Source of the DNA: Candidatus Campbellbacteria bacterium
GTDB lineage: Bacteria; Patescibacteriota; Minisyncoccia; Phycocordibacterales; UBA1006
Length of the DNA stretch: 64,000 bases
Direction of reading: 5' to 3'
Assembly: GCA_002698305.1 (NCBI GenBank)
Contig: NZWR01000003.1
Span: forward strand, 10,794 to 74,793
Shown here one piece after another: positions 9,925 to 34,705 of the stretch; within the stretch, counting starts at the first letter, position 1; each line of letters begins with the position of its first letter. Made by a program: the position numbers and the translations under genes. The notes beneath the pieces are model-generated. The model was not told the origin of the DNA and made no database searches. It saw only the letters and a list, made by a program, of their open reading frames with translations.

Positions 9925-9974
9925 AGATACCCTAGTATACCTTAGGAGGTGTTTAAAATCATCACCTTTATTTT

Positions 9975-10178: not shown

Positions 10179-10184
10179 GATATA

Positions 10185-10213
10185 AATATATCACCTTTTT
10201 AATATTTTGTCAA
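10185..10213 (-). promoter_or_regulatory. near-consensus sigma70 promoter driving the sRNA candidate
   Basis: Minus-strand TTGACA (10208-10213), 17 nt, TATATT (10185-10190). Confidence 0.6.
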
Positions 10214-10346
10214 GTGCATTTCATGCACGCGATAAAACAAAGGTATTACGAATATACCAAAGGTATGGTAAATACCCAAGGCACAGCTGTGTATAATATG
10301 TGAATAAATAAATTCGTCAATACCTTAAGAAGAATTATACGCAAAA

Positions 10347-10355
10347 TGGTATACT
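10347..10355 (+). promoter_or_regulatory. extended -10 element (TGGTATACT) 6 nt upstream of the ruvB ATG, leaderless-type promoter
   Basis: TGgTATACT at 10347-10355, ATG at 10362. The same 18-mer, TGGTATACTCT(C/T)TGTATG, recurs at 39235-39252. Confidence 0.55.
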
Positions 10356-10361
10356 CTCTGT

Positions 10362-11956: not shown

Positions 11957-11978
11957 AAACACCACGTAGGTGTTTTTA
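11955..11978. terminator. bidirectional terminator between yebC and PBP1A
   Basis: AACACC-acgta-GGTGTT with an A-run on the 5' side and a T-run on the 3' side. Confidence 0.75.
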
Positions 11979-14864: not shown

Positions 14865-14892
14865 ACCTTGTATTATACATAGGAAAAAGTAA

Positions 14893-15375
14893 TTACAACG
14901 ATGATGTTCGCGATACAAGGTGAGTCAACGCAACAGCAATTGCATCAATTTCATCATCGAGATATTTCTTTTCAGGAAGTTTGATTAGCTTGGGAATCAT
15001 AGTGTTCATATCTTTTTTTGTGGCTCTTCCATAACTTGTTATTGCTACTTTTATCTGATTAGGTGTGTATTCATATATTTCACACCCAACATCTTGAGCT
15101 AGGTAATTACACACCCCCCGAATCTCTGAAACCTTAAGCGCTGTTGTTGTATTTTTTGCAAAATATAATGTCTCTTGGGCACACTCATCTGGTGAATACT
15201 TTTCTATCACATCTCTCACTTTTTTTCCTATTGTGTAGAGGCGTGTATTGAAATCATTTTTCTTTGAACTCATTAAACAATCAGAAAAAAGAATCGTTTT
15301 ACGATTCTTTTGTGTTTGCTCTACCACAGCAATACCAAGACGGTCATACCCAGGATCAAACGCTAGAACTCTCAT
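14893..15375 (-). CDS. ruvC: crossover junction endodeoxyribonuclease RuvC
   Basis: MRVLAFDPGYDRLGIAVVE... and C-terminal DEIDAIAVALTH. TGATATACT lies 6 nt upstream of the ATG. Confidence 0.9.
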   Translation of the reverse strand: MRVLAFDPGYDRLGIAVVEQTQKNRKTILFSDCLMSSKKNDFNTRLYTIGKKVRDVIEKYSPDECAQETLYFAKNTTTALKVSEIRGVCNYLAQDVGCEIYEYTPNQIKVAITSYGRATKKDMNTMIPKLIKLPEKKYLDDEIDAIAVALTHLVSRTSSL

Positions 15376-20307: not shown

Positions 20308-21270
20308 TTAAGATTGTTTTTTTATAAAAGTATATACTTTTCCGCTCTGTTGTATATGAGCATGGTGGCAATTACTGTCGTAGATAAAGTGAAAATCATT
20401 ACTCATATCAAAACCTTCTTCTTTTGGGGTAAACAAACCAGAACAGTCCCGCTGCCCCTGCTCATTATATCTAGTAATGATATACGTATTTCCACTTTCT
20501 TTTTCAATATTAAACTGAGCACTGCTCCCGGTACCTCGAAGTAATTGAGTGTTTTTAACGCGAACAATTTCTTTTTCTGTCGTGTGTTTTTTTCTATGTA
20601 GGAACGTAAATAGGTTTTTTCTCCGAGATATTTTTTCTGTTATCTGGATCCCATTCTCGTCTATTGTGTAAATTTTTCCTGAACTTGTTCCTTTTCGGAT
20701 GATACCAAGAGGGCTTGGTGTGATGGTGAGTGTTTTTTCAATTCCTCTGCGTATCTTTTTATTTGTTGTTCCGTGTAGTAGGGTTTCTGCTACAAAGCGA
20801 GCACAGTTACTCCCATTTTTTACAAAGACACCATATTCAACACTTCCTTTGTTATGGAGATTTTCGATATATTGACGTGCTTTTTGGGAATTAATATTTT
20901 GTGAAACAGTTGCTACAAGCTTTCCGTCACCATGAGTTTTTTCTGGGTGATTATAGAGCCATTGAAGAATCTCTTTTATGTTGGTAATAACACCTTTTTC
21001 TATGTGTGCTCGTAGGGGCACGTGAAGTTCGGTATCCGTCTTTTTACTCCGCACTCTTCCTTTTCCTTGGGGAGTAATATAGCGACCAAAATCAAAGTAA
21101 TCAACATTACCGGTTGTATGATTAACAAGACACAGGGCTGCATGACCAGCCTTAATAGCATCTTTTGTTCCTACCCCTAGGTAGGGGAGAATTTTACAAA
21201 TATATTCCGTTGAGGGCCGCACAAAAACATCTGGGTAGGCCATAAGGATAAGTGACGCGTCGTTTTTCAT
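20308..21270 (-). CDS. hypothetical protein with LRAT/NlpC-P60-like His...NCxxF motif
   Basis: 320 aa. KAGHAALCLV and GSNCARFVAE resemble the His/Cys pair of papain-like LRAT/NlpC hydrolases. By eye only. Confidence 0.55.
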   Translation of the reverse strand: MKNDASLILMAYPDVFVRPSTEYICKILPYLGVGTKDAIKAGHAALCLVNHTTGNVDYFDFGRYITPQGKGRVRSKKTDTELHVPLRAHIEKGVITNIKEILQWLYNHPEKTHGDGKLVATVSQNINSQKARQYIENLHNKGSVEYGVFVKNGSNCARFVAETLLHGTTNKKIRRGIEKTLTITPSPLGIIRKGTSSGKIYTIDENGIQITEKISRRKNLFTFLHRKKHTTEKEIVRVKNTQLLRGTGSSAQFNIEKESGNTYIITRYNEQGQRDCSGLFTPKEEGFDMSNDFHFIYDSNCHHAHIQQSGKVYTFIKKQS

Positions 21271-21331
21271 GTTGATATTGTACGTGTTTTAAGTATTCCT
21301 TCAAACTAAAAAGCAGCAATAATGCTCCTTG

Positions 21332-23176
21332 TTAGTTTACAAACTGATTTGTGTCTTTGTTCTTTAGTTCCTCTTTTGCTTTTTTAATCGACAGAACTTG
21401 AGCAGGATCAGAGGTGATAATTTGGTCTTCGGTATATGAGGCGATAATTTTAATTGCAACATGTTTCAGTCCCGCAAAGAAGATTCCTTCTCCAACATTT
21501 GATTCAATTAATAAATACTTCTCTTCATCAGTAAGTCTGAAAATCTCCTGAAGGTTATCGATAGCACTTGGCGATTGTTTTAAGAGTAATTGCATCGATG
21601 AGTTGGTGATAATAGGAACACCGTAACGTGACTTGATAAAGTCACCGACGTCCTGAGTAATAGTTGCAAGCCCAAGGAAGTATTTACGTCCACGCTTAGC
21701 AATCATAAACAAGAATGATGCGGTATCATCTGATTTCATCATCCACCACGCCTCATCCACCACAAGGAGACGTTTCTTAATATCTTTACGGACAGCATTC
21801 CAAATAAACTGCGTGATGATATACATCGCTGCAGGCTTCAGCTCATCCTCCATATCTCGGATAGAGAATACAACAAGCTTTCTGTTAATATCCACGTTTG
21901 AAGGTTTGTTAATAAACCCAGACCAGGTTCCTCGCGTATATTTTGTTAGTCGTGTTAACAAAGATTCACTTCCTTCCATTGAAGAAAGCACCATTTCAAA
22001 GTCTGACATCAAGGGCGGCTCAATGTCTGAGTAATCGCTGTTAGGGGTGATATCTTTCAAGGCATAGGTTTCAGTAATAGCCCTATCAACCACTGAATCT
22101 TCTTCTGGTGTTAGACCTCCAAGCATGATCCTAAAGAGCCCTACGAGGTGAATAATATGGGTCCTAAGAACATCTGCTGGATCCTCGTCATCGAGCGGCT
22201 TTGGTACATCAAAAGGGTTGATGTGGTGCTCGGAAGAGAGGGAGATGTTAAAGTATCGTCCTCCTACGGCCTCGGCAAGGTATTCATATTCACGTTCAGG
22301 GTCAATAACGATAACTTCGGTATCAAACATCATTGTTCGCAGAATCTCAAGCTTTGTAGCATATGATTTTCCGGCTCCAGAAGTCGCAAAGATTACTGAG
22401 TTGTAGTTTGGTAGTGAATAGCGATCAAAAATAACGAGCCCTGAGTTGTGGCGGTTAATTCCGTACAAAATTCCTTTGTTGTCAGTGAGTTCTGATGAGA
22501 TAAAAGGGAAAAATGATGAAACGGGTCCGGTATTCAGTTTAGTGTGCACCTGTAACTGGTCGTTCCCAACAGGGGCAACTGACATAAACCCTTCAACTTG
22601 CTGGAAGAGTGCTGGTTTTAGATAGATAAGCTTTGATTCTAAGAGTGACCTAATTTCATTCTCAGTTTTAAAGAGCTCGTCTTCATCATCAGCATAAATA
22701 GTGATATAGAGACCAACAGAAAAGATTTTTTCCTGAGCTTGTTGCAGGGAGTCACGAAGTTGTTCAAGGTCACGATACGCAGTATCAAGGATTGGATCGC
22801 GAACGAGCCCTTTTGATTCTCGGGTGCTAATCTGTGACTGCACTTCGGCAACCTTTTTTTTGAATTGACTCAGAATTTTTTCAGTAGCAATAGGATGAAT
22901 ATGAATTCCAATATCAAAAACCTTATCAAGGTTAACGATTGGGGCGAGCCACCCGTCAGTAAGGTACCGAGGGTATGACATTACAAAAAAGGTTCGTGAT
23001 GTCTTGCCAGCGATACGGATAGATTTAGAGCTGACTTCAAGGGCTGCAGGAGCAAGAATATCTTGAAGCTGCAATTTCGCCGATTGATAAATTTCTCCTG
23101 GAAGCACAGGAACAGCAGTTGTTTTGATTTCTTCTTTTGGTTTAGAATTACCTAAAAGATCAGATAGTAGTGACAT
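21332..23176 (-). CDS. virB4: VirB4/TraC-type type IV secretion ATPase
   Basis: Walker A FATSGAGKSYATK, Walker B LLVVDEAWWMM, downstream GLATITQD. Start moved to ATG 23176 (MSLLSDLL), with TGGTATACT 6 nt upstream. Confidence 0.85.
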   Translation of the reverse strand: MSLLSDLLGNSKPKEEIKTTAVPVLPGEIYQSAKLQLQDILAPAALEVSSKSIRIAGKTSRTFFVMSYPRYLTDGWLAPIVNLDKVFDIGIHIHPIATEKILSQFKKKVAEVQSQISTRESKGLVRDPILDTAYRDLEQLRDSLQQAQEKIFSVGLYITIYADDEDELFKTENEIRSLLESKLIYLKPALFQQVEGFMSVAPVGNDQLQVHTKLNTGPVSSFFPFISSELTDNKGILYGINRHNSGLVIFDRYSLPNYNSVIFATSGAGKSYATKLEILRTMMFDTEVIVIDPEREYEYLAEAVGGRYFNISLSSEHHINPFDVPKPLDDEDPADVLRTHIIHLVGLFRIMLGGLTPEEDSVVDRAITETYALKDITPNSDYSDIEPPLMSDFEMVLSSMEGSESLLTRLTKYTRGTWSGFINKPSNVDINRKLVVFSIRDMEDELKPAAMYIITQFIWNAVRKDIKKRLLVVDEAWWMMKSDDTASFLFMIAKRGRKYFLGLATITQDVGDFIKSRYGVPIITNSSMQLLLKQSPSAIDNLQEIFRLTDEEKYLLIESNVGEGIFFAGLKHVAIKIIASYTEDQIITSDPAQVLSIKKAKEELKNKDTNQFVN

Positions 23177-23244
23177 GACACTAGTATACCAAGTACCTGC
23201 ATTAAAATAAAACACAAAATCAATGGTCTATAGTGTGGAATTAT

Positions 23245-23266
23245 AAAAAACACTCTAAAGAGTGTT
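23245..23266 (-). terminator. terminator after the 550-aa gene
   Basis: AACACTCT..AGAGTGTT hairpin followed by a T-run on the minus strand. Confidence 0.65.
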
Positions 23267-24919
23267 TTAAACGCTGCTTAGTCTAAGGCTCCAAAGATGT
23301 TCAGTTTCTTTGTCTAGGAAATAGAGGTAATCATCATCCTCATCGATCATAATTTTTTCAATATCTATTCCAGGCGCATAAACATCAGTGATATTGAATT
23401 CATATGTTTCTTCAAAGTTTGGAATACTTATTTTCCAAATACCATCGTTATAGAGTTCTTTTCCAAGATACCAGCTATCAGGATACTCCCCTTCAAAGGC
23501 AAGCGAATTTGGAACACCACAATAAACTTCATTACCGTCTTTAGACCATACGCATTTATCTGCAAAGGTTTGAAGTGTTAGTAGATGTTCGGTGTTATTG
23601 ATTCGATCTCGAATAAAGGTTTCGACCCCATCCCCTGTACTACGGCTTCCTATTGCATATTCTCCGCTTGGACTCACAAGCAGTGTTAACCCGACCGTTG
23701 CATCGGTCTTTTTAAAGTATCTTCCTGTGTCAGGTGTCAGCTCGTAACTATATCCTGAGGCTCCGTAACTTGGCTTGGTGACAAGTTCAATACTATTCTC
23801 ACTGGTGAATTGAGACAGCCATTCTGAGAATGGAGATTGAAAAATAATGGTTGGCTCGTCTGTTTCAAGATTGCGCAGTGTTCCTTGCGAACCATTTTCA
23901 TTTGATACCAAGTAAAACATTTGCTCTGGTAGATTTGGACTCATGCTGATGCTTGCAATATCCTGTGATAGGAATGAACCAGTCAAGGTATATTTTTCAT
24001 CAAGATTGTTATACACCTCAATAGCAGCTTGACGTTGCTGCTCGTCGCAGACCTCAAGCATTTGTTCTTTCGTTGCGTCGCCAATCTGCCCATCAATCTC
24101 TAGCTGATACAGTGATTGAAAGTTTTTAATAGCGGTACGTGTTTCTTCGGTAACCGCTGAGCCCTCATTTCCTGGTGAGTTGGTACCTTCTTGTGAGACA
24201 CGCGTTTGAGGTGATCGGTTCAGGAAGCTGTGAATACCAATAACATCAATATCATCTTCACCGTCTTCAAGAGCTCTAAATTCAAATGGGCATGGTTTAA
24301 TGTCTAGCTCAATAGGTCTGAGTTCTCCAAGATAGGTTTCTGCAGTATGGTCATCACTATTCCAGTACTGGAAGGCCGCATAGGTTCCTGTAGGGCTGAA
24401 ATAGACGTGTTCCGCGTTAGGTACATAGTTGTTAACCAATTTTGTTTCGGTCAGCTCAAAATCAGTTACTGCAGATTCATAGACCGTTCCATCTGAAATA
24501 GCGGTATAGCGAATATAATCATTCTCTACCGGAACTTTCTTTAGAACCTGAACACTTTCACCATCTTCGTCTATTTCAATATCAAGAATCTCTTGCTCCT
24601 CAACCTTGGTAAGTGGAACAAACCCTCCAGTTGGAAATGTAGAGACTTTTCGTAGGCGTGGGACGTTTTGATCCGGGTCAATACCGTCATCGATAATTTC
24701 ATCAGTCTCTATTGGCTCACCGTCATCACCAATAGTGAACTGACCTCCAGAGCTGCTTTGACCACTGTCAGATACTTCTCCAAACGGGAAGAGGTTTCGA
24801 GTATTCTGCCCAACATCATCTCTTCCTGAATCATCAAGAATGAAAAAATACCAAATTCCCCCAAGAACCAGAGCAAGAATTAGCAGCACAATAAAAATTT
24901 TTACTATTTTTTTGAGCAT
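23267..24919 (-). CDS. N-terminally anchored extracytoplasmic protein with a peptidoglycan-binding-like segment and probable beta-propeller region
   Basis: TM IVKIFIVLLILALVLGGIWYFFIL. TRTAIKNFQSLYQLEIDGQIGDATKEQML resembles the PG_binding_1 motif. The remainder is repetitive beta-rich (TolB-like impression). Confidence 0.6.
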   Translation of the reverse strand: MLKKIVKIFIVLLILALVLGGIWYFFILDDSGRDDVGQNTRNLFPFGEVSDSGQSSSGGQFTIGDDGEPIETDEIIDDGIDPDQNVPRLRKVSTFPTGGFVPLTKVEEQEILDIEIDEDGESVQVLKKVPVENDYIRYTAISDGTVYESAVTDFELTETKLVNNYVPNAEHVYFSPTGTYAAFQYWNSDDHTAETYLGELRPIELDIKPCPFEFRALEDGEDDIDVIGIHSFLNRSPQTRVSQEGTNSPGNEGSAVTEETRTAIKNFQSLYQLEIDGQIGDATKEQMLEVCDEQQRQAAIEVYNNLDEKYTLTGSFLSQDIASISMSPNLPEQMFYLVSNENGSQGTLRNLETDEPTIIFQSPFSEWLSQFTSENSIELVTKPSYGASGYSYELTPDTGRYFKKTDATVGLTLLVSPSGEYAIGSRSTGDGVETFIRDRINNTEHLLTLQTFADKCVWSKDGNEVYCGVPNSLAFEGEYPDSWYLGKELYNDGIWKISIPNFEETYEFNITDVYAPGIDIEKIMIDEDDDYLYFLDKETEHLWSLRLSSV

Positions 24920-24982
24920 AGTAGTACCTGTAGTATATCACGATGGAATTTTTGAGGAAAAAGAAAAACCGCATTCGCGATC

Positions 24983-27766
24983 TTATCTTCCTGTGGTTGA
25001 CCAATGCCAGTTTTCGATTGACCTTCCTCCTCTTTTAAGATTAAACAACCCATAGCTATTTGCGTTGTCTACCATCCAGTTGTAGCAATCACGTGTCCAC
25101 TCTTTTTTTGTTCCGTTTGTGTTTCCGTCGTGAACATTAATAGTTCCTGTTTGACCTCCTACTGTACAAGTAAAGTCTATTGCAAGTCCTGAGTTATGTT
25201 CTGATTTTCCAGGGGGGGCTGTTGGAATAGTACATGAGGATGATGGAGCATTATGTATGTCTGGACATCCATTTTTTATTCTAAGATATGCTTGTTGTTC
25301 CATTGTTCTAAAACCTCCACCTCCAAGGGATATTGAGTCGGTGGCTGCATTGGTAAGTAGATTTTGGTACTCCTCTGAAATACTTGAACACAGATATGTG
25401 CTTCCAACCTGCGTGATTCCCTGAGGGCATTTTGGGGTAGTGTATGAACCATCACCAAGATTGGGTGGATACGGCGGATACTGGGAATCATTAGCAATAA
25501 CTTCTTTAATCGCCGCTTCGTCTTCTTGATTAACTCTAACCTCTTCAATATTTGAGCCAAAATTCACTTGTAGAAGCTGTGGGTTAATCGTGTTTAGAAT
25601 GATATAGATGCTGAGGCCAAGGACTAATCCCATTAATGCTTGGGTGATGCGTGTTCGAGCATTACTTTTCCCAGTAAGGCTTTCCTCGGTCATGTACTGC
25701 ACTCCAGCAACGACAATCATAATGACTGACAATACCATCAAGAGACCAAGAGCTACTTGGAACAATGAGTTCACATAGTCTTCAAATTTGAAGGTGGTAA
25801 CATCTACCGCGACCCTTCGTGGATCGTTAGGGTCGGTAATATTACCAAGACCTGGAATAGGTGATAAGAATTCATAACAATTATCTTTGTACCCAGTTAA
25901 ATCCTCATTCGCACACGGTCCACTTGGTATAATACTCGAACCTGGGAAAACTGACTCAGGGAGGCCCGAGTTTGGATCAATTCCTGAGACTGACTCGATG
26001 GTCCAATTGGTACCACCACATAAACCTTCTGCACAATTTGCAAGTACTAACCCTCTCTCATGCGGCTCACCTGACCCTGTGTTGTTAATGGTATTAACAG
26101 TATCCCCAGCAACGTTTTCAATCTCAACACTAAAATTACAATCAGGATCATAATCAGTGTTGCAGTCATCATTGTGGGCCCTAAATGTCATTGTTAGTAG
26201 TTCACCATTTGGGGTTACTTCGAGTGTATCAGTGGTCTCTCCTCCAATATCAAAAGTTACGCCCCCGCTTGTGTTGTTGTCAGGAAATTCAATACTTATG
26301 GGGCTATTAACACAATTTGTTGTGTTCACCTTAAGAACGATAAGTGCATCATCAATTATTTCATTGTGTTGATTAAAGCTAATATCTGAACTTTCAAGAT
26401 TACAAACAGTGTTAGTACCATCTATACCTAAAATAATCTCTTCAAAATCCCAGTTATCTGAATCCCATCCCAGTAAGTTTCCTTCTCCGCAACTACCAGC
26501 ACAATTTGCAAGCCCAACTCCGCGCTCTGCCATAATCTCTTCAATATCTTCAATCATTTCAGCCCCCTGGTCAAAAATAAGGCTTGCTGATAGTTCAGGG
26601 TGCTCTCCCCACGTACTACTTGAATTAAATATTAATTCATCATTTGAGGCATCATAGATTTGAAAGTAATAAACACAATCCCATCCCCATTTCGTTGATC
26701 CCCCTTCACCATCTCTATTTTCCTCGTGACATTCAGCCTCATCTGATTCTACTTCAACAACAATCTGCCCACTATTTGTTGGTTTAATTAGTGGTGGCAT
26801 CTCTTCAATCCTTACAAAGCGAGGAGTAAGATTTTCAAGTCCTGCTGCTTTTATTACGACTCCGTCATTACAACCAGATACACTGATTTCGATATCTGTA
26901 TTTGAATCTACAACATTGCCTAGTGTGTTAATAGTATCTATGGATAAGCTGTTTACAGAACACCCTTCAATCACAGTATTATCTGGTACCTGACTTGTTG
27001 TAAAAGAAACAATTTCTCCTCGAACCTCTGTTCCTCCACCAAGGCTTTTTGCACAGGCTTGATAAAAGTAGTTTGTACTTGGTAACAAGTCTTCTATATT
27101 AGAATTCCTAAAAGAATCTGGATAGTGCTGCTCGTTTCGGTCGTATACACATTCACCCGCAACATTATTTCCATTTTGGTTGGTATTAATGATATATCCA
27201 GATTCACGAATATACGGAGTCACTATTTTTCTCCTCAATGTTGCGGATTGATAGGTAATGTTATTTTGCTGAACAGCAAGCGTCTCTACTTCGATATTTT
27301 CAAGTTGCTGTGTTGTAGGCATGGCAAAAGAAACAATCTCTCCATCTACATTAATTCCAGAATCCAATATCCCACAGGCTTTATAGTAATAGGTCGTTCC
27401 TGGTTGCAATCCAGTAAATTGCTTTTTAAAAGGAGAAGTCTGTCCATGCATAATATATCCTCCATATGCACCAGTACCTGGAATTAACCAAGAACTTTGG
27501 TTGGTGATAATACCACAGCTACTTAGTTCGACATTAGATTGATTTGTACCAACAGCAAAACCAATTTGCTTCATTTTTGAGTTATATTTTTGCTCTAGCG
27601 TTCCTTGGTCAAGGATAAGGTACCCTGATACCTCAACGCTTGTTTGAGAAAGAAACTCGGCTGGGAGAGTTTGAATATCATACTCAAGGTTAACGTTCCC
27701 TCCTTGGGCTTGTGATACTAGAAATCCAGCAAAAAATAAAAGAAAAGTGAAGAAAATTTTTTTCAT
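24983..27766 (-). CDS. composite T4SS-locus protein: secreted Fn3-like/Cys-rich ectodomain + VirB2/TrbC-like two-TM hairpin + C-terminal M15 (VanY-type) peptidoglycan peptidase
   Basis: Signal MKKIFFTFLLFFAGFLVSQAQG. Repeats end in TTYYYKACG / TNYFYQACA. TM pair ALGLLMVLSVIMIVVAGVQYM and ALMGLVLGLSIYIILNTINP. C-terminus has GGGGFRTMEQQ...PGKSEHNSGLAIDF...ENWHW, the M15 His/Asp zinc-site pattern. Confidence 0.75.
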   Translation of the reverse strand: MKKIFFTFLLFFAGFLVSQAQGGNVNLEYDIQTLPAEFLSQTSVEVSGYLILDQGTLEQKYNSKMKQIGFAVGTNQSNVELSSCGIITNQSSWLIPGTGAYGGYIMHGQTSPFKKQFTGLQPGTTYYYKACGILDSGINVDGEIVSFAMPTTQQLENIEVETLAVQQNNITYQSATLRRKIVTPYIRESGYIINTNQNGNNVAGECVYDRNEQHYPDSFRNSNIEDLLPSTNYFYQACAKSLGGGTEVRGEIVSFTTSQVPDNTVIEGCSVNSLSIDTINTLGNVVDSNTDIEISVSGCNDGVVIKAAGLENLTPRFVRIEEMPPLIKPTNSGQIVVEVESDEAECHEENRDGEGGSTKWGWDCVYYFQIYDASNDELIFNSSSTWGEHPELSASLIFDQGAEMIEDIEEIMAERGVGLANCAGSCGEGNLLGWDSDNWDFEEIILGIDGTNTVCNLESSDISFNQHNEIIDDALIVLKVNTTNCVNSPISIEFPDNNTSGGVTFDIGGETTDTLEVTPNGELLTMTFRAHNDDCNTDYDPDCNFSVEIENVAGDTVNTINNTGSGEPHERGLVLANCAEGLCGGTNWTIESVSGIDPNSGLPESVFPGSSIIPSGPCANEDLTGYKDNCYEFLSPIPGLGNITDPNDPRRVAVDVTTFKFEDYVNSLFQVALGLLMVLSVIMIVVAGVQYMTEESLTGKSNARTRITQALMGLVLGLSIYIILNTINPQLLQVNFGSNIEEVRVNQEDEAAIKEVIANDSQYPPYPPNLGDGSYTTPKCPQGITQVGSTYLCSSISEEYQNLLTNAATDSISLGGGGFRTMEQQAYLRIKNGCPDIHNAPSSSCTIPTAPPGKSEHNSGLAIDFTCTVGGQTGTINVHDGNTNGTKKEWTRDCYNWMVDNANSYGLFNLKRGGRSIENWHWSTTGR

Positions 27767-27814
27767 GTTCTGATTATACTATCCTCGCGCTGTTTTGCTA
27801 AGTAAAAACCTTGG

Positions 27815-28834
27815 TTAGGAACCAAGGTTAATATTAAGCGTTGCTCTCCCGACTCCTTTTTGGAGAATTTTTTTAATACCTTCTACAGCTGTTTCTATTT
27901 GCAGGGAGCCAGATTCTCCATTGGTGGTAAGGAAAATTTGATTTTGTTTGGCAAAGTCTTGAGGGGCTTGGTCGCGTCCGTTTACATTCCATCTAACAAA
28001 TACATCAGTAAAATTTCGAGCTGTCGTTGAGAAATATACAGGGTGAAAGGCTAATCTGATGGTGTCTTTAAGAAGATTAGGGAAATTACGCAGCGATTTT
28101 TGAGTCAAGAGCCGTCCGTCAGTGTTCATCTCATAAAAAAGAATTTCCGGGTCGATTGCGGCTGTATCAATATTAATAACATTTTCAGCAAAGGAATTCT
28201 CGCGTCGGTCGTTAGAAGTTACACTAATACGTTCATTGGTAATAATCGGGTCTGCTGTAAATTCAAATGATTGGCGTCCAAACCCCGAAGACCGAACCTG
28301 GCGGTCATAATTTCGGTCCCAATAGTAAATAAGGTTTGGGGCATCGTTTGGTTCAATGAGGAGTGTTTCAGGGATTCCTGTTACGCGGATTTCAGACTGG
28401 CGAATAGGCAATGCTTTTCCTTTATAAAAAGGTGGGGTATAGCTATCAACCGTCTCCCACAACAAATCAATGTTTGATGGAGCAAAACCCAGTTCTTTAC
28501 GTAAAGAACGTCCCTGGTAATCAACGACAATAGTGATGTTGGTCGGTTCACCCGTGTTTCCGTTGGTAAAGCTGTAGTCACGTTCACCAAATCCAGAGAG
28601 GACACGCTGGCCATTTTTAAACCAAGAAATAAATTCATTATTAAGATTAAAACTGTAACTCGTCACCCGAAGATCAACCTGTTCGTTGGGTCCTGGAATT
28701 TCAGGTTTGATATCGACAGAAATATCATCAGCGCTATACAAATCAAATTGCTGAGCTCCCGTATGTTCAGCAAAGGTAAAAAAACAGGCACTGAACAAGA
28801 ACGCAAATATAAAAATGTGAGAAAGCTGTTTCAC
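27815..28834 (-). CDS. secreted hypothetical protein of the T4SS-like locus
   Basis: GTG start. Signal MKQLSHIFIFAFLFSACFFTFA. TATACT lies 6 nt upstream of the start. Confidence 0.6.
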   Translation of the reverse strand: MKQLSHIFIFAFLFSACFFTFAEHTGAQQFDLYSADDISVDIKPEIPGPNEQVDLRVTSYSFNLNNEFISWFKNGQRVLSGFGERDYSFTNGNTGEPTNITIVVDYQGRSLRKELGFAPSNIDLLWETVDSYTPPFYKGKALPIRQSEIRVTGIPETLLIEPNDAPNLIYYWDRNYDRQVRSSGFGRQSFEFTADPIITNERISVTSNDRRENSFAENVINIDTAAIDPEILFYEMNTDGRLLTQKSLRNFPNLLKDTIRLAFHPVYFSTTARNFTDVFVRWNVNGRDQAPQDFAKQNQIFLTTNGESGSLQIETAVEGIKKILQKGVGRATLNINLGS

Positions 28835-28890
28835 GTCATCAGTATACTATTTTTTCTGATTGTTTATAAGCCATATAAAAAGAACAGCTG

Positions 28891-29550
28891 CTACTGTCCT
28901 AGTTGTGGAATATTTCGGTGACTCTCTCCTGGGTTGAACATGTTATAGAACACCTCAATAGCTTGTTCAGTGTTTAATTGTTCTGATCGCACCCCAAAAC
29001 GAGAAAGCCCTCCTTTTACAATAGCAACACGCTGTTCAAGCTGGCTTCGTTGCTCTTCAAATTTCGCAGATTCTTCTTGGAAATTCTTCTTTTTACTACC
29101 CAAGAATAACTGTTGGAAAATATTTTGATCTGGAGCTTTGCTAAAGGCACTTCCAGTATATGGAACAACAACGTAGAATTTCTTAGACATTACATTGACT
29201 GAGTCGTTAAACCATTTAATGAATTCAATGTACTCACGCGTTTGAAGACGAAGCAATTCTTCTTCCTGCTGTTCAATCCGCCTTTCAAGAGTAAGAAGAT
29301 AGGGCTTGATATCATAACGTCGTGATTGCACAGCAATTTCAACTGGGAATTCAATAGAGTTTAAAAAGCCTTGGAACTGCATAATAACCGCCTGCTGCTC
29401 GTCAGGTGATTTTAACGCAATATTAATTGCTGAAGCTAGAAGAATAGCTCGCAAGCTCCCGTCTTCAAGAACGACAATACCATCCCGAATTTCTTTTACT
29501 GGAATAAAATCTTGCGTTCGTGATCCCGAATATTTTTTAGTCTCCGCCAT
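28891..29550 (-). CDS. cytoplasmic hypothetical protein of the T4SS-like locus
   Basis: 219 aa, no TM. DFIPVKEIRDGIVVLEDGSLRAILLASAINIALKSPDEQQAVI resembles N-terminal regions of Gram-positive conjugation ATPase-associated proteins. Weak, by eye. Confidence 0.55.
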   Translation of the reverse strand: MAETKKYSGSRTQDFIPVKEIRDGIVVLEDGSLRAILLASAINIALKSPDEQQAVIMQFQGFLNSIEFPVEIAVQSRRYDIKPYLLTLERRIEQQEEELLRLQTREYIEFIKWFNDSVNVMSKKFYVVVPYTGSAFSKAPDQNIFQQLFLGSKKKNFQEESAKFEEQRSQLEQRVAIVKGGLSRFGVRSEQLNTEQAIEVFYNMFNPGESHRNIPQLGQ

Positions 29551-29990
29551 AAGTATCCCTAGTATACCTTATTTTCAATAAGGTATACTAGGGATACTTC
29601 CCTGAACTTGTTTCAGGGTCCCCCATCATGAAAAAGTATTTTGTCTATATTCTTACTAATAAAAATCACACTGTTTTATATATTGGTATGACGGGTAATT
29701 TAAGGGAAAGAATTCTTAAACACAGAGTTGGAAACGCTGCTCCATTTATGACACAATATAATTACAAAAAACTAGTTTACTTTTGTAGGTGTTTAGACAA
29801 AGTAGAAGCACTGAAAAAAGAAAAACAAATAAAAAACTGGAGACGTGAATGGAAAATTACGCTTATAGAAAAACAAAATCCTCTGTGGGAGGATTTTTTT
29901 GATTACCTTGTTTAAGTTGTGGGTTCAGGCCCTGAAACAAGTTCAGGGCTTGGACTTTGACGAGTAACTAGTTACTCGTCAAAGTCCAAG
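29551..29990. mobile_element. GIY-YIG mini-cassette bracketed by perfect palindromes and inverted 19-nt hairpins
   Basis: Left: a 23-bp perfect inverted repeat, 29551-29573 with 29577-29599. Hairpin CCCTGAACTTGTTTCAGGG at 29600-29618 has its exact reverse complement at 29930-29948. Right: a 42-bp perfect palindrome at 29949-29990. Confidence 0.5.
29628..29915 (+). CDS. GIY-YIG nuclease family protein (YhbQ/UPF0213-like, 95 aa)
   Basis: KYFVYILTNKNHTVLYIGMTGNLRERILKHR...KEKQIKNWRREWK carries the GIY..YIG, Arg and Glu motifs. It is the only plus-strand gene inside the minus-strand T4SS-like block between 21.3 and 34 kb. Confidence 0.85.
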   Translation: MKKYFVYILTNKNHTVLYIGMTGNLRERILKHRVGNAAPFMTQYNYKKLVYFCRCLDKVEALKKEKQIKNWRREWKITLIEKQNPLWEDFFDYLV

Positions 29991-30391
29991 ATATCGAGGC
30001 TCCACGCAAGATCTGAAATTTTTTGATCGTTAGTTTCTTCAGGTAAATCGCCTTCTTTTGGAAAAGGTTTGTGGATTTGCTGTACATTTCGAGCCCCAGG
30101 TTCCGGATCTTTTTGTCGCCACAGATAGAATTTATTTGAAAAGCTGTATAGGATAAATGACTCTACCATTTCAATAAAAGGACGTCCATTTGGTTTGTAA
30201 AAAACCAAGGCAAGCGCAAAGCCCCCAATAGGTGCCCCAAGCAAGATGGCTGCAAATGTCGGCAGTGATTTGTAGAGAATAAAAATAATTCCTGCCCCAC
30301 CGACAAGGTATAAAGTTTCTCTAAACGTAAATGGACCAAATAGTTTGTCGGGTACATTGATAAATTGTGGCACTTCAAACCTCATTAACAT
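29972..30391 (-). CDS. PrgI/TcpE-type (VirB3-like) small membrane protein
   Basis: FEVPQFINVPDKLFGPFTFRETLYLVGGAGIIFILY followed by a second TM PIGGFALALVFY. This pattern is typical of the VirB3 analogues of Gram-positive T4SS. Confidence 0.65.
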   Translation of the reverse strand: MLMRFEVPQFINVPDKLFGPFTFRETLYLVGGAGIIFILYKSLPTFAAILLGAPIGGFALALVFYKPNGRPFIEMVESFILYSFSNKFYLWRQKDPEPGARNVQQIHKPFPKEGDLPEETNDQKISDLAWSLDILDFDE

Positions 30392-30438
30392 AAGTATAGC
30401 AAGTGCAAACTAAAAAGAAACATCGATGCTGATGTTTC

Positions 30439-31281
30439 TTAGTCTTTACTAATATCTTGCAAGCTTGGCTCAGATGATTGCTCTTTTTGGTATATGTGAG
30501 ATTCAACAGCTGGGGCAAACCCTTGTAGATGAATTTTTTTATCATGAGAATGATCAGGGGTATAGTTGCCTTGCCCAAAATCACGCCCTGTCGCTGCGCG
30601 AGTTTCTTCAGGAACAAACGCTGACAATGGATCGCCTTGTTTTAATATTTTCGTATCAGTTCGGTGCCCGCTAATTCCCTCAAGGTCTTTGTGAGTAATT
30701 TCTTCATTATAGCTGGTGGTGCTTTTCTCTAGCGTTGTTTGCGGTTCTTCGATGGTTTCATTATTTGCGACTTCTTTGTGTTCGGTAGCTCCTCCTAGAA
30801 TTGCAGCGACTTCTTTGTGAAGATGCGTATCAACAGAATCACGGGATTCATCTTCATCAACAAGGTGTACGCCAGAACCAGAAAGGTCACCTCGGAAATC
30901 ATCATGATCAATTGGTTCAAGGTATGGGTCAAATTGGACCGTTGTATCTTTTTGTGTGAGATGAGGCTGAACGTTTGTAGAAGTAAAGGATGCTTTTTGT
31001 ATGGGGGAGAGCACAGTGCTGTTAATATCGTTCACCAATGATTTAACTTTTTCTGGAAGGACACCTAAATGTTTCTGAATATGATTTGAGAGTTCATCTG
31101 GCTTACTCATTCCCACAATGACAAGCATAATTTCTCGATAGAGCTCGTCCTCTTGGTCAATACTGAGTTTGTGTGCGCGAGCAATCTCAGTAAGTTTTTT
31201 TGGCCATGGAAAATTTTTGACAGCTGATTTAATATTATCTGGAAGTTCTTCGATTTTCCGTTGAATAATGTCGTGTATCAT
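30439..31281 (-). CDS. hypothetical protein of the T4SS-like locus
   Basis: Start moved to ATG 31281 (MIHDIIQRK), with GGTATACT 6 nt upstream. No recognisable domain. Confidence 0.55.
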   Translation of the reverse strand: MIHDIIQRKIEELPDNIKSAVKNFPWPKKLTEIARAHKLSIDQEDELYREIMLVIVGMSKPDELSNHIQKHLGVLPEKVKSLVNDINSTVLSPIQKASFTSTNVQPHLTQKDTTVQFDPYLEPIDHDDFRGDLSGSGVHLVDEDESRDSVDTHLHKEVAAILGGATEHKEVANNETIEEPQTTLEKSTTSYNEEITHKDLEGISGHRTDTKILKQGDPLSAFVPEETRAATGRDFGQGNYTPDHSHDKKIHLQGFAPAVESHIYQKEQSSEPSLQDISKD

Positions 31282-31315
31282 GACCATAGTATACCTTAGT
31301 ACCTCCAAGGGATAA

Positions 31316-31340
31316 AATAAAAACACCATTAATGGTGTTT
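31316..31340 (-). terminator. hairpin terminator after the 104-aa gene
   Basis: Perfect palindrome AAACACCATTAATGGTGTTT with flanking A/T runs. Confidence 0.7.
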
Positions 31341-31655
31341 TTATTTGTGTTTATATATTTCTGTGTGAATCAGTTTTAGGATTTTTTGTATATCTTCAGT
31401 TTCTCGAGCTCGCAGAGCAATACTTATATTGTCATCGGCAGATTTTAAAGAAATCATATCAAGTAGGTAGCCAATAGCATTTTCTTGCACCTCTCGTGAT
31501 TCATCATTTCCTAGTGCAAATGATGTTTCAATTTTTTGTATATCTTTCGCCATATCTCCTGATTCTAGATATTCCTGAGTTTGGGTTGAACTATTAACAA
31601 AATACTCTGCTAGAAGCTCTGCCTGTTTAGACGTGTTGTTTGGTTCTGTTGTCAT
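31341..31655 (-). CDS. small acidic hypothetical protein of the T4SS-like locus
   Basis: 104-aa ORF 8 nt downstream of the VirB6-like gene, same strand. Confidence 0.5.
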   Translation of the reverse strand: MTTEPNNTSKQAELLAEYFVNSSTQTQEYLESGDMAKDIQKIETSFALGNDESREVQENAIGYLLDMISLKSADDNISIALRARETEDIQKILKLIHTEIYKHK

Positions 31656-31663
31656 AATAATTG

Positions 31664-33973
31664 TTAGTTACCTTTTTTCTCGTTTTTATATCGGGCCTTG
31701 CTGAGATCTCTGTCAAAATCCTTGCCATCGTTGGCAAACATTCCTCCTACTTTAGTTTTACGTTCTTTTCTTAATTCTTGAATACGAGGATTTTTCCCAA
31801 TCCAGCTGGCGAGATATCCAGCAGCAGCTCCACCTAAGGCTGCTCCAACATATGCACCTGCCCCAGGAAGAACGATTGATGTAATTGTTCCTCCTAATAC
31901 TGCACCAACGGTAGAAGCTTTTTTGGTATCACCATATCCACCTTGTTGTTCTCGCGCGTCTAGATACTGTTCTGTTCTTCTTCGACCATCCTGTGCAAAT
32001 GGAGTATTTGTATCCAAGATCTTTTGATCCTTGTCAGTTAGGTCATCTTTCCTGCCTTTAATTTCAACCTTCAGTTGGCCAATTTCAGCCTTGAGGCCAT
32101 CAGCTTTTCCAATCTTCTCATTGTCAATTGGCCTCCCAGCATCTTTATCATCTTGTATAAGTCTTCGTACATCCTTGAGGTCTTCTTGTTTTTTAGTAAC
32201 ATCCTCCTCTTTTTTTAGAATTTCATTTTCAATCTCTTTAACTCGTTTAACCTCAAAGCTAGGTTTTCCATTCTCATCAAGAAGAATATCCCCTGCCTTA
32301 GCTTCGTCATAGTTTCCTGGGCCAGCAAGCATTTCTCTTGTAGCATTTTCACTCTGAGCTTGAGCTTCGGTCATTCGCGTGTATGAACGAACCCCGTATG
32401 CACCATCTCGGTAGTTGTCTTCTTTGGTCGACATCCAGTCATTGAATTTAGTTGCTTTCTCTTCTTTTTCTTTTGCAATTCTTTCTTGTCGCGGCTTGAA
32501 TCCTTCTTTAACATTTAAGGCGTTCGTAGCTGTAATACCTGTTTGTTTTCCTAGGTATTGTGCTGCTTTTGTTTGCCTAAAATCAAAGGTTGATGATTGG
32601 GCGCGATCAGCAAGGTTGTATGCTGAACGACCAAGGCTTCCGCTTTTTGCAGCCAGGTTTTTAAATCGTTCTGATTTCATCGCCCGGCCTGCTACTGCCC
32701 CAACTGTTCCTCGTGCTGCTAATGCCGCTCCTCCAGTTGCAACACCAAGCCCAACAGCAGCTGCACCTCCAACGGCCTTGTTTACGACATGGCTGATAGT
32801 TCCGGCGATTTCTCCTGACATTTTTTGCGCCACTCTTTTTGAAAGCATGATAATGGCAACAATTCCAAGCATCGGAATAATGACGTAGAATATTTGTTTA
32901 ATAAAATCATTCGTTGCTCCTGATTCAGAAACAATATTGATATTCATGAATTTAATAGCAAGGAAGAGGAAAAAGAGAAAGGCTGCCGGCATAAAGGCCA
33001 TCTTAATAAGATCGTTCAGCCATTTTTTAAATCCTACATAAGGCAAGCTCTCCATTCCGGGGACCGTAATAGAGGCGAAAGCAAGGGGGGCAAGCACCAC
33101 GGTGATATATAAACCAATAGTTCTCCCAAGCATGAGTAAGGCTACCGACATAAAGGTGAAAATTATAACAGCGTTTATAATTCCGATAATAAAGACGAGC
33201 ACGAGCCTCACTCCTGTACTTGCATTACTTCCTCCTTCAGCACCAACTTCGTTGAGGATTTTTTGCGGATTGAATTTTGCTGCAATCGCCAATGAGACGG
33301 ACTCTTCTCCAGACAAATCATTAACCAAATCCCCATCATTGATGGCCTGCCCTTCTCCGTCAATAATTGTGGTGTTTTGAGCAGTACCACCAATATTGTT
33401 ATAGAACACAAACCCTAATACATTACCAAGATCAACCAAAAGAAATGAGAAAAATAAACTAAAGTTAATAGTTAGAGCCACCAGTATTGTTTTAACGAGT
33501 CGCTGCTTATCATCTCGTCCCGCCATACCGAGCACCATTTTGAACGCCATTACAAGTAGTGCAAATATAAACAATACATTCGTAAGATCACGTAATATTT
33601 CCCATCCTTCTACAATAAAACCAGCATCACGATAGGAGGAGCTTTGCAGGGTAAATTCCATGAAAAAGTCCAGCACCATTCCTGCAACCAAAACCAAGAA
33701 ACCTCCAACCGTAATAAGAAGCATTTGGAAAAAGTTTACAATTCCACACCCAAAGTCGTACCATGTACAGTCAAGATATCCGACATCCTGCGATCCAGCG
33801 GGTGTTGGTGGGTTGTTCGCGTCAAAACCGCCTCCTTCTACACCGCCGTCACCAGCACTGCCTTGTGCGTACACAACCGCGGGACTTATCCCTGACTCGT
33901 TCTGCGTAACAGGCGGAGTAACAATAGCAGTAAAAAAGACAAAAACTAGTAAAATCTTAATAAAGGTTTTCAT
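31664..33973 (-). CDS. polytopic VirB6/TrbL-like membrane protein with long Lys/Glu-rich coiled-coil region and C-terminal Gly-zipper TM
   Basis: Signal/TM at the N-terminus, at least 6 hydrophobic helices between residues ~70 and 420, then KEEDVTKKQEDLKDVRRLIQDDKD..., then GAVLGGTITSIVLPGAGAYVGAALGGAAAGYL. Confidence 0.6.
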   Translation of the reverse strand: MKTFIKILLVFVFFTAIVTPPVTQNESGISPAVVYAQGSAGDGGVEGGGFDANNPPTPAGSQDVGYLDCTWYDFGCGIVNFFQMLLITVGGFLVLVAGMVLDFFMEFTLQSSSYRDAGFIVEGWEILRDLTNVLFIFALLVMAFKMVLGMAGRDDKQRLVKTILVALTINFSLFFSFLLVDLGNVLGFVFYNNIGGTAQNTTIIDGEGQAINDGDLVNDLSGEESVSLAIAAKFNPQKILNEVGAEGGSNASTGVRLVLVFIIGIINAVIIFTFMSVALLMLGRTIGLYITVVLAPLAFASITVPGMESLPYVGFKKWLNDLIKMAFMPAAFLFFLFLAIKFMNINIVSESGATNDFIKQIFYVIIPMLGIVAIIMLSKRVAQKMSGEIAGTISHVVNKAVGGAAAVGLGVATGGAALAARGTVGAVAGRAMKSERFKNLAAKSGSLGRSAYNLADRAQSSTFDFRQTKAAQYLGKQTGITATNALNVKEGFKPRQERIAKEKEEKATKFNDWMSTKEDNYRDGAYGVRSYTRMTEAQAQSENATREMLAGPGNYDEAKAGDILLDENGKPSFEVKRVKEIENEILKKEEDVTKKQEDLKDVRRLIQDDKDAGRPIDNEKIGKADGLKAEIGQLKVEIKGRKDDLTDKDQKILDTNTPFAQDGRRRTEQYLDAREQQGGYGDTKKASTVGAVLGGTITSIVLPGAGAYVGAALGGAAAGYLASWIGKNPRIQELRKERKTKVGGMFANDGKDFDRDLSKARYKNEKKGN

Positions 33974-34112
33974 AAATATCTTTATTATATGTTATATGTG
34001 CTGGTTAGCATACTCTTTGTTTTCCTTTATTTATCCACAGTTGATAGCAAAAGCATTTACAGAGGTTGAAATTATATGTCATAATAAAGAAAATAATAAA
34101 AATCCATATACT

Positions 34113-34577
34113 ATGAAAAAGCTCATTTTTATTTTAGCTCTATTTGTGACTTTCTTCTCTCAAAATACTTTTGCCCAAAGCAACGCCCCTGAATTACAAC
34201 AAAGAGGTGGAGATATTATGCGTGAGTATTATGATGACTATAGAGAAGCAACACGAACTATTCTCAAGCAATCCTATCCGAATGCCTACGCAGACGGACT
34301 GTGGATTGAGGGAAAGAACTGGCTCGTGCTTAACAACTTTTATAACTGCAAAGATTCCGAGTTTTACTACTGGAGTGTGCTAATACAGCAATACAATTCT
34401 ACAACGGGTAAATATCAAAAAGGTGTGATTTACTATGCCTGCCCTACAAAGTGGCTAAAAAACGGTAAGTTTACCCCAAAGAGCCTTGCTAATACAACTA
34501 TTGTAGGAAAAAAGAAAGCATACACCGGAATGGAAGAGTATCTTACAGACAGCGAAGTAGCTTCAAACACACCGTAA
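34113..34577 (+). CDS. small secreted hypothetical protein
   Basis: Real start at ATG 34113 (MKKLIFILALFVTFFSQNTFAQS). The upstream part of ORF 33660-34577 is antisense to the VirB6-like gene. Confidence 0.6.
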   Translation: MKKLIFILALFVTFFSQNTFAQSNAPELQQRGGDIMREYYDDYREATRTILKQSYPNAYADGLWIEGKNWLVLNNFYNCKDSEFYYWSVLIQQYNSTTGKYQKGVIYYACPTKWLKNGKFTPKSLANTTIVGKKKAYTGMEEYLTDSEVASNTP

Positions 34578-34655
34578 ATATACGGTACAAGTTAAGACCA
34601 AAAGACCTTGTTATATGTTATATACAGGGTCTTTTTTATGTATAAATTTTCTCAA

Positions 34656-34686
34656 AACAAAAACCCTCAGTGCATGAGGGTTTTTT
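34656..34686 (-). terminator. terminator of the 880-aa gene
   Basis: ACCCTCA-gtgca-TGAGGGT with A/T runs. Confidence 0.75.
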
Positions 34687-34705
34687 AATTCAGAGCCAAG
34701 ATACC

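Follow-up and report, generated by a model that had tools for sequence, protein, structure and literature searches.

The stretch analysed here, hereafter the window, comprises 64,000 nucleotides of contig NZWR01000003.1 of the ultra-small Candidatus Campbellbacteria, a lineage placed in the class Paceibacteria (PMC12102498). An open reading frame (ORF) on its minus strand (24983..27766, ATG start) encodes a protein of 927 amino acids (aa), and we find that it is a genuine single gene, in which a signal peptide, Fn3-like and Ig-like modules, a pilin-like transmembrane (TM) hairpin, a linker and an M15B peptidase follow one another. The gene lies in the cluster of a chromosomal type IV secretion system (T4SS) of the Gram-positive type (MPF-FATA-like; MPF, mating pair formation) of this Paceibacteria-class Patescibacterium, and the protein is probably a structural and enzymatic component of that system. 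We regard it as probable that the protein is dedicated to the T4SS, its VirB2-like hairpin anchoring or docking both a VirB1-like wall enzyme and a variable, adhesin-like ectodomain. The initial annotation, made from the sequence alone, had presented the fusion as an unusual architecture; comparison of related genomes points to a regular design, the hairpin-enzyme fusion appearing as the standard form of a core T4SS component in hundreds of Patescibacteria species.

A single gene for ectodomain, hairpin and peptidase

The domain order read by the initial annotation, with a signal peptide, a Fn3-like and Cys-rich ectodomain, a pilin-like hairpin and an M15/VanY domain, is recovered by Pfam, by hydropathy and by AlphaFold2 (AF2) models. 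The strings TTYYYKACG, TNYFYQACA, GGGGFRTMEQQ and ENWHW, together with ALGLLMVLSVIMIVVAGVQYM, ALMGLVLGLSIYIILNTINP and PGKSEHNSGLAIDF, are all found in the translation. Hydropathy marks three segments, the N-terminal aa 1-22, TM1 at about aa 670-692 and TM2 at about aa 709-729, the last two joined by the loop TEESLTGKSNARTRITQ, which holds K, R and R. None of the 24 Cys lies within the hairpin: 18 belong to the ectodomain (2+2+6+6+2 by module) and six to the C-terminal domain. Pfam recognises the Fn3-like family Pur_ac_phosph_N in two stretches (E 1.9e-7), and in each of these Fn3-like modules a single Cys pair accompanies the motif L.P.T.Y(Y/F)Y.AC...V.GEIVSF.

The merging of separate genes by misassembly or by a frameshift, a concern raised at the outset, is ruled out. 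Database records list six contigs, the longest of 111 kb, with exactly this protein, labelled as a hypothetical protein of Candidatus Campbellbacteria, and a 936-aa relative that is 87% identical has the same architecture and the same gene order in an independent assembly (L083). When aa 640-927 (hairpin, linker and VanY) served as query in an exhaustive HMMER search, 152 cluster representatives (clusters at 50% identity) matched at E<1e-30, and hairpin and VanY were matched as one unbroken stretch in 148 of the 151 best matches. A word-indexed homologue search with the full-length protein gave just the protein itself and one relative, and the same search with the ectodomain (aa 263-640) gave no matches, the query itself included.

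A predicted M15B zinc peptidase

By profile, active-site residues and fold, the C-terminal domain is a disulfide-stabilised M15B zinc peptidase, with a predicted activity. The Pfam family VanY (PF02557) covers aa 791-924 with 42.3 bits against a cut-off of 25 (E 8e-11), and the catalytic motifs consist of R820, S855-x-H857-x2-G860-x-A862-x-D864 (SxHxxGxAxD) and E918-x2-H921 (ExxH). The M15 residues, whose lack on alignment had been named as a finding that would speak against the assignment, are all present: R820, S855, H857, G860, A862, D864, E918 and H921 are invariant in an alignment of 33 sequences (A1), as are the six Cys of the domain, and the fold is that of VanY and LdcB. In the AF2 model of hairpin and VanY, the predicted local distance difference test (pLDDT) score exceeds 90 in the peptidase domain and is 78 overall. 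The top Foldseek matches of the peptidase in the Protein Data Bank (PDB) are VanYB (5zhf), VanY (5hnm), BaLdcB (4jid/4mph), VanXYc (4oak) and LdcB (4ox3), with E between 5e-7 and 8e-5 and probability 1.0, and pairwise sequence matches to the VanY, LdcB and VanXY structures align the catalytic motifs. The LAS fold, the motifs SxHxxGxAxD and ExxH and the upstream Arg are common to these structures and to our protein, whereas the identity is only 19-23%, and three additional invariant disulfide pairs and the C-terminal fusion to a pilin hairpin set the latter apart. VanY and LdcB, the nearest structures, are carboxypeptidases; the enzyme predicted here may be a D,D-carboxypeptidase, an L,D-carboxypeptidase or an endopeptidase. 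Since the protein itself gives no match to SLT, CHAP or NlpC in Pfam or NCBIfam, it is not a member of VirB1 by sequence, and may be called VirB1-like by function at best.

The pilin-like hairpin and its topology

The hydrophobic pair had been likened to VirB2/TrbC pilins, and this reading is sustained by hydropathy, by AF2 helices and by profile matches, which are borderline for the protein itself and robust for its family. T4SS_pilin (PF18895) matches aa 665-726 with 22.4 bits in the full-length protein, under the cut-off of 26.6, and with 26.9 bits in a scan restricted to the 110-aa hairpin region. Among family hairpins, 70 of 71 match T4SS_pilin (best E 2.6e-11) and 34 of 71 match TrbC/VirB2 (PF04956), and NCBIfam adds a weak match of our protein to the Mbov_0395 pilin-like conjugal transfer family of mycoplasma integrative and conjugative elements. 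The AF2 helices span aa 661-693 and 697-727 (pLDDT 85-90), a loop Lys is nearly invariant in the family alignment (A3), and Y, L and P of the pre-hairpin motif C-Y-E-F-L-S-P-I-P-G are conserved in at least 90% of sequences (alignments A1 and A4). A search of PDB sequences with the hairpin profile returned no pilin, its sole match being a spurious one to a MacB TM segment, and Foldseek matched the hairpin and VanY model via the VanY domain only, with non-specific matches for the helical hairpin; the pilin identity therefore comes from sequence profiles and not from a solved structure. A signal peptide, two long hydrophobic helices and a short positive loop are the features of a pilin, and our protein has them. 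Small hairpin-only pilins measure about 70-130 aa when mature; here about 640 aa precede the hairpin and about 190 aa follow it, and because of these large regions on both sides within 927 aa we do not class the protein as a canonical pilin.

In VirB2/TraA pilins both termini lie outside the cell. The same orientation would place the ectodomain and the peptidase both outside and the loop in the cytoplasm, and we infer this topology because of the signal peptide, the two strong TM helices and the K/R-rich loop, with which the invariant disulfide-type Cys agree. The topology, which had been found puzzling, ceases to be so, as signal peptide, two helices and K/R loop together make up the standard VirB2 orientation.

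The segment around the hairpin also bears on the possibility that the protein is a precursor, cleaved for instance near YEFLSPIPG, in the linker after QVNFGSNIEEV, or at both sites, to release a free ectodomain, a pilin of normal size and a free hydrolase. The fusion would then serve co-translation and co-export only. Canonical VirB2 and TrbC pilins are terminally processed, and a near-invariant motif lies just upstream of the hairpin, which in short family members falls near the expected start of a mature pilin, after the signal peptide and a short spacer; behind the hairpin, a conserved junction is followed by a disordered linker. However, no known processing motif, sortase-type or other, was recognised at YEFLSPIPG, which is not LPxTG, and Pfam and NCBIfam scans identified no dedicated peptidase gene in the cluster. 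We consider such processing rather improbable; it would be compatible with the docking role that we favour as well as with the pilus-like role discussed below.

The fusion across Patescibacteria and its exchangeable enzyme slot

In a scan of one genome per species, at least 534 genomes encode a relative of the hairpin region, of which 80 loci were kept. The corresponding records are titled Paceibacterota/Paceibacteria, Nomurabacteria, Wolfebacteria, Minisyncoccia, Parcubacteria and 'Patescibacteria group', and many further loci are titled, as deposited, 'uncultured Candidatus Saccharibacteria'. A tail of at least 100 aa follows the hairpin in all 84 complete ORFs of the related loci, the other two of the 86 running off the contig end. 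A stand-alone small pilin of the hairpin family was found neither in the 80 related loci nor, by family hidden Markov model (HMM) or by a two-TM scan of small ORFs, in the window. In short family members nothing but a short spacer and the motif Y-x-L-L-A-P-I-x-G separates the signal peptide from the hairpin, behind which come the linker and VanY, so that in its minimal form the protein is a pilin bearing an enzyme at its C-terminus. The protein of the window is among the longest; its Fn3-like and Ig-like modules form an insert that ends at the pre-hairpin motif and follows the signal peptide. Further away in sequence, the relatives are LdcB-like proteins of the ordinary kind from other phyla. 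In databases such proteins go under the names 'M15 family metallopeptidase', 'D-Ala-D-Ala carboxypeptidase', 'VirB2 component' or 'hypothetical', though both Pfam domains are recorded.

Two contigs binned as Bacteroidota, L034 (a Crocinitomicaceae metagenome-assembled genome, MAG) and L035 (a Flavobacteriales MAG), have hairpins 53-54% identical to that of our protein. L034 also has the T4SS/dnaA cluster; on the 2.9-kb L035 the hairpin gene is accompanied solely by a homologue of the 339-aa protein that is encoded beside it in the window. Both contigs are most likely mis-binned.

The tails were typed by Pfam, member by member, in the ORFs of 82 loci, and as these loci were chosen by similarity to the query of hairpin and VanY, VanY is over-represented in the following proportions. 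VanY occupies the slot in 34 ORFs by similarity to our protein, plus two by Pfam, NlpC/P60 in 11, and SLT, SLT_2 or SLT_3 in three by similarity and eight more by Pfam; Peptidase_M15_4 is found in three, YkuD in three, Amidase_2 in two, Extensin-like_C in two and a VanX-type Peptidase_M15 in one. Single-linkage clustering was dropped, as it merged VanY and NlpC types, probably via the shared linker. At least four tails (L037, L038, L045 and L052) have no Pfam match, and all those with a match belong to cell-wall enzyme families. Because every complete hairpin ORF has a tail and every matched tail is of a wall-enzyme family, the slot appears functional and not accidental.

The hairpins closest to that of our protein (50-63% identical) carry VanY, NlpC/P60, SLT, YkuD or SLT_2 tails, so the type of cassette does not track hairpin relatedness. 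A direct case is provided by P0140 and P0145, which are identical over 522 aa through ...LLQVNFGSNIEEV and continue with NlpC/P60 in one and SLT in the other; the same junction is present in our protein at aa 733-743. In loci with VanY, NlpC/P60, SLT, YkuD, Amidase_2 and M15_4 tails, the downstream gene is a homologue of one and the same PG_binding_1 protein, and thus no immunity gene varies with the enzyme. These comparisons indicate that the enzyme domain is a swappable cassette and not specifically an M15 peptidase. The M15 enzyme described by the initial annotation stands for the protein of the window; as a fixed trait it does not, relatives carrying other classes of wall enzyme in that slot.

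Two hairpin-enzyme paralogues per cluster are encoded in four genomes (L067, L028, L011 and L027), at 9095-10843 and 12248-14095 in L067 and at 9071-10714 and 10755-12569 in L028. Within one genome the paralogue hairpins are 90-100% identical, yet they carry unrelated tails, such as NlpC/P60 in one and SLT in the other, or VanY and SLT. The pattern points to concerted evolution of the hairpin and suggests either that gene conversion acts on the hairpin or that the cassette was replaced after a recent duplication. All hairpin copies would then have to fit one common partner, or one another.

The gene keeps its place in the T4SS cluster. Homologues of the VirB4, PrgI, TrsD-like, 339-aa, PG_binding and VirB6-like proteins and of DnaA accompany it in 42 of the 43 related loci of at least 18 kb, and the synteny was confirmed in three gene tables (L001, L002 and the P0062 contig). 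The T4SS context that had been assigned to the protein is correct, VirB4, PrgI and a TrsD-like protein being present in the cluster of the window. This position is hard to reconcile with a housekeeping role, in which the protein would be a membrane-anchored LdcB/VanY-like carboxypeptidase of the cell's own wall, encoded by chance near the T4SS and the origin, with the hairpin as a generic anchor. Such a role would be in keeping with the nearest structures, with the LdcB-like distant relatives in other phyla and with a region that also holds a PBP1-type protein (11976-14918), yidC and dnaA. Nevertheless, the anchor matches T4SS_pilin or TrbC in the proportions given above, unrelated enzyme classes replace M15 while hairpin and gene position stay, and a hypervariable ectodomain of 600 aa is not expected of a housekeeping carboxypeptidase. 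Because of the synteny and the pilin-type anchor, we deem it unlikely that the protein is a housekeeping enzyme.

A hypervariable ectodomain

The B1 and B2 modules are modelled by AF2 as all-beta, tandem Ig-like beta-sandwiches (pLDDT 78.9). Their Foldseek matches have E >1e-3 throughout and are generic: Fab chains, NPC2 and the Ig-like domains of a beta-galactosidase from Bifidobacterium. An iterative profile search finds the B module in many family members, in one to three copies. Self-BLAST of the ectodomain detected no internal repeats, the A1/A2 and B1/B2 repeats being recognised by reading and by the iterative profile search.

We compared the locus with that of the near-identical strain L083, whose six neighbouring proteins are 97-100% identical at the aa level. 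The protein itself is about 98% identical over aa 1-262, 58% over aa 263-450, 78% over aa 451-600 and 100% over aa 601-927, and dS is about 1.6 in both divergent segments. Nucleotide identity falls to 57-81% at positions ~26030-26900 of the window, about 1 kb, and is 94-100% elsewhere. The divergent B1-B2 stretch is a recombined allele of a variable cassette, and not the outcome of local point mutation. As dN/dS in the cassette is 0.08-0.21, both alleles are under purifying selection. Searches of the window by tblastn with both alleles found no silent donor cassette. A mechanism of the diversity-generating retroelement type was considered and rejected: the divergence extends over about 1 kb, with indels and saturated synonymous change, and is not adenine-specific over a short repeat.

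From the Ig-like and Fn3-like folds and the hypervariability between strains, we infer that the ectodomain may have an adhesin-like role. The earlier proposal of adhesin, pilin and hydrolase in one protein accordingly stands for the pilin-like hairpin and for the enzyme domain, and the adhesin part is retained as a possible role, no membership of an adhesin family having been found.

Elsewhere in the window, a 1009-aa protein (920-3949, minus strand) has Fn3-like (Pur_ac_phosph_N) modules weakly like A1/A2 (tblastn E 1.5e-5) and a DUF11 repeat, a few genes from an ATPase of the type II secretion/type IV pilus type (T2SSE, 7756-9924). It may be another surface protein with modules common to the one studied here.

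Proposed role at the secretion site

We propose that the protein would be exported by the Sec pathway and, after removal of the signal peptide, held in the cytoplasmic membrane by its VirB2-like hairpin, with the K/R-rich loop in the cytoplasm and both passenger regions facing outward. The hairpin could dock on, or co-assemble with, the T4SS platform formed by the VirB6-like protein, VirB3 and VirB4, which would fix the passengers at the secretion site. There the M15B domain may cut or trim stem peptides of the peptidoglycan beside the machine, a VirB1-like task performed by a peptidase, and in the relatives whichever wall enzyme fills the slot would do the same. The ectodomain would extend across the wall and past its outer face, and could serve there as a variable module of the surface, for adhesion or for recognition.

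Several observations weigh against this proposal. VanY and LdcB carboxypeptidases trim stem peptides and open no holes in the wall, so with these as the nearest structures a hole-punching VirB1 role is not guaranteed, and the YkuD domain (L,D-transpeptidase fold) in the slot of some relatives suits remodelling better than lysis. The cluster already holds a wall-related TseH-like hydrolase and the PG_binding_1 protein. The pilin score of the hairpin is, as described above, borderline for this protein, with a robust match at family level, and its docking onto the VirB6-like protein is conjectural.

It can also be hypothesised that the hairpins assemble into a filament like true VirB2-like pilins, or that the protein sits on a pilus-like stalk, as its tip or as a minor subunit, and that the enzyme and the Ig-like modules are thereby presented to the wall of a host bacterium. 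The host wall would be breached or remodelled at the contact with the epibiont, and enzyme swapping would track host wall chemistries in the manner of polymorphic toxins and phage tail lysins. The swapped enzymes behind a conserved N-terminus and hairpin in P0140 and P0145 are consistent with this, as is the replacement of a 1-kb ectodomain cassette by recombination between strains otherwise 97-100% identical. The identical hairpins of paralogues are expected of co-assembling subunits, no separate small pilin accompanies the fusion in the 80 related loci or in the window, and in F-type pili both pilin termini face outward. T4SS and VirB2-like pilins are reported to be essential for epibiotic growth in Southlakia, the one Patescibacteria system tested (PMC10633639). 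Among the T4SSs of monoderms, those of Patescibacteria are described as the only ones that may build a pilus, and a pilus-like conduit has been proposed (PMC12857230). On the other hand, passengers of 640 aa and 190 aa per subunit are hard to fit into tight helical pilin packing, a constant downstream PG_binding_1 protein takes the place where an enzyme-matched immunity gene might be sought, the nearest M15B structures are not lytic endopeptidases, and a pilus in Paceibacteria is not reported in the literature searched. We therefore see polymerisation or stalk capping as a minority possibility. Speculatively, and with a similarly low expectation, the 'pilin' of the Paceibacteria T4SS might be a carrier, whose identical hairpins form or cap a short stalk or pilus that displays wall enzymes and recombining Ig-like modules, as a wall-breaching and host-specific contact device. 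Such a carrier pilin would fuse the functions of VirB2, VirB1 and VirB5/adhesin, with a cassette exchange like that of polymorphic toxins.

The surrounding gene cluster

The coordinates of the protein parts and of the T4SS genes are collected in Table 1. The cluster adjoins jag, yidC, dnaA and dnaN and fits the published description of chromosomal MPF-FATA-like Patescibacteria T4SSs near the replication origin (Quinonero-Coronel et al, 2025; PMC12102498).

Table 1. Parts of the 927-aa protein and genes of the T4SS cluster, in coordinates of the window.
Feature	Residues (aa)	Position	Strand	Basis or remark
T4SS cluster		20308..37348	-	Pfam and NCBIfam scans, related loci
Signal peptide, predicted	1-22, MKKIFFTFLLFFAGFLVSQAQG	27701..27766	-	Hydropathy peak; K-K / hydrophobic / AQA-like pattern
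Two Fn3-like modules A1/A2	23-152 and 153-262	26981..27700	-	Pfam Pur_ac_phosph_N, direct reading
Two six-Cys B modules (B1/B2)	263-450 and 451-600	25967..26980	-	AF2, Foldseek, iterative search
Pre-hairpin segment	601-660	25787..25966	-	Cys pair C618/C630; motif C-Y-E-F-L-S-P-I-P-G at aa 630-639
VirB2/T4SS_pilin-like two-helix TM hairpin	661-735	25562..25786	-	Pfam, NCBIfam, AF2, hydropathy; loop TEESLTGKSNARTRITQ
Linker	736-778	25433..25561	-	Opens with conserved junction ...LLQVNFGSNIEEV, beyond which relatives carry other enzyme domains; low pLDDT at aa 735-749 (AF2)
M15B (VanY/LdcB-like) zinc peptidase domain, predicted	779-927	24986..25432	-	Pfam VanY, alignment, AF2, Foldseek
880-aa secreted protein		34706-37348	-	
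769-aa polytopic VirB6-like protein		31664-33973	-	
104-aa protein		31341-31655	-	
296-aa protein		30439-31329	-	
PrgI/VirB3		29972-30391	-	
219-aa TrsD-like VirB4 N-domain protein		28891-29550	-	
339-aa secreted protein		27815-28834	-	No family match
550-aa TM protein with PG_binding_1		23267-24919	-	
VirB4, CD1110 family		21332-23215	-	372 bits against a cut-off of 325
TseH-like hydrolase		20308-21270	-	

The genes flanking the hairpin-enzyme gene, those for the 550-aa PG_binding_1 protein and the 339-aa protein, are conserved like VirB4 itself, and their products are likely partners of the hairpin-enzyme protein. In the window, these two genes and the hairpin-enzyme gene separate the TrsD-like gene from the VirB4 gene; in L001, L002 and the P0062 contig, TrsD-like and VirB4 genes are adjacent and the trio follows VirB4. 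The separation in the window is a local rearrangement of the cluster.

Between the PrgI gene and the TrsD-like gene, and oriented against them, lies a 95-aa GIY-YIG nuclease ORF (29628-29915, plus strand; Pfam GIY-YIG E 2.5e-13). The near-identical strain L083 lacks this insert of about 360 bp and has 64 nt between the two genes, and the ORF looks like a mobile or homing-type gene that was inserted recently. Directly downstream of VirB4, the TseH-like protein is of the type VI secretion effector type (NlpC/P60-like, with a C-terminal DUF6695). No homologue was detected in the 43 related loci that measure 18 kb or more, and among all loci L034 alone encodes one; the TseH-like protein is an additional wall hydrolase, particular to the cluster of this lineage.

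Comparison with known systems

The T4SS of Patescibacteria, its location near dnaA and its VirB2-like pilins are already known (PMC12102498, PMC10633639, PMC12857230). The literature and supplements searched, with incomplete coverage, held no description of a pilin-hairpin-hydrolase fusion, of cassette exchange or of a hypervariable ectodomain, and the hairpin-enzyme design is apparently undescribed. In characterised T4SSs, pilin, adhesin and hydrolase are separate proteins, and the architecture found here does depart from them, as had been remarked from the sequence. In the related T4SS loci examined of Paceibacteria, the largest class, every VirB2-like hairpin has a C-terminal tail, a wall enzyme wherever Pfam matched, and often also a hypervariable ectodomain. 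Published censuses of 'pilins' and of a 'missing VirB1' in such genomes may therefore need revisiting, as one gene may supply both functions.

The VirB2-like pilins described from Patescibacteria (PF18895; Wang et al, 2023, PMC10633639; PMC12102498) have in common with our protein a signal peptide, a two-helix hairpin and a short charged loop, and both are encoded in a chromosomal MPF-FATA-like cluster, often near dnaA. However, the described pilins are small and stand-alone, often in tandem arrays of 2-11 genes, whereas this hairpin is embedded in 927 aa. The hydrolases of VirB1 type, PrgK of pCF10, TcpG of pCW3, TraG of pIP501, CD419 and TrsG, are likewise membrane-tethered wall enzymes encoded in a T4SS operon; they are modular, and SLT and NlpC/CHAP-type domains fill the slot in close relatives of our protein. 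They differ from it by a single N-terminal TM anchor and by SLT, LytM or CHAP domains, where our protein has a pilin-like hairpin, an M15B domain and a large variable ectodomain. In the literature searched, the VirB1 homologues reported are separate proteins with SLT, CHAP or M23 domains.

A conserved anchor joined at a fixed junction to unrelated C-terminal cassettes is a feature that the family shares with polymorphic toxins (CdiA-CT, LXG and Rhs) and with tail-associated lysins of phages, as is a hypervariable recognition region. Unlike the polymorphic toxins, the family is without a cassette-matched immunity gene, its Pfam-matched cassettes all serve wall metabolism, and it is predicted to be membrane-embedded. 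Finally, the minor type IV pilins CofB and TcpB, which act as tip or initiator, have a pilin module fused to bulky beta-rich domains. By analogy, and not by homology, they would suit our protein as a tip or initiator rather than as a bulk subunit; fold and machine are unrelated (the N-terminal helix of type IV pili in CofB and TcpB, the VirB2 hairpin of a T4SS here), and CofB and TcpB are without the enzyme domain that the hairpin carries in this family.

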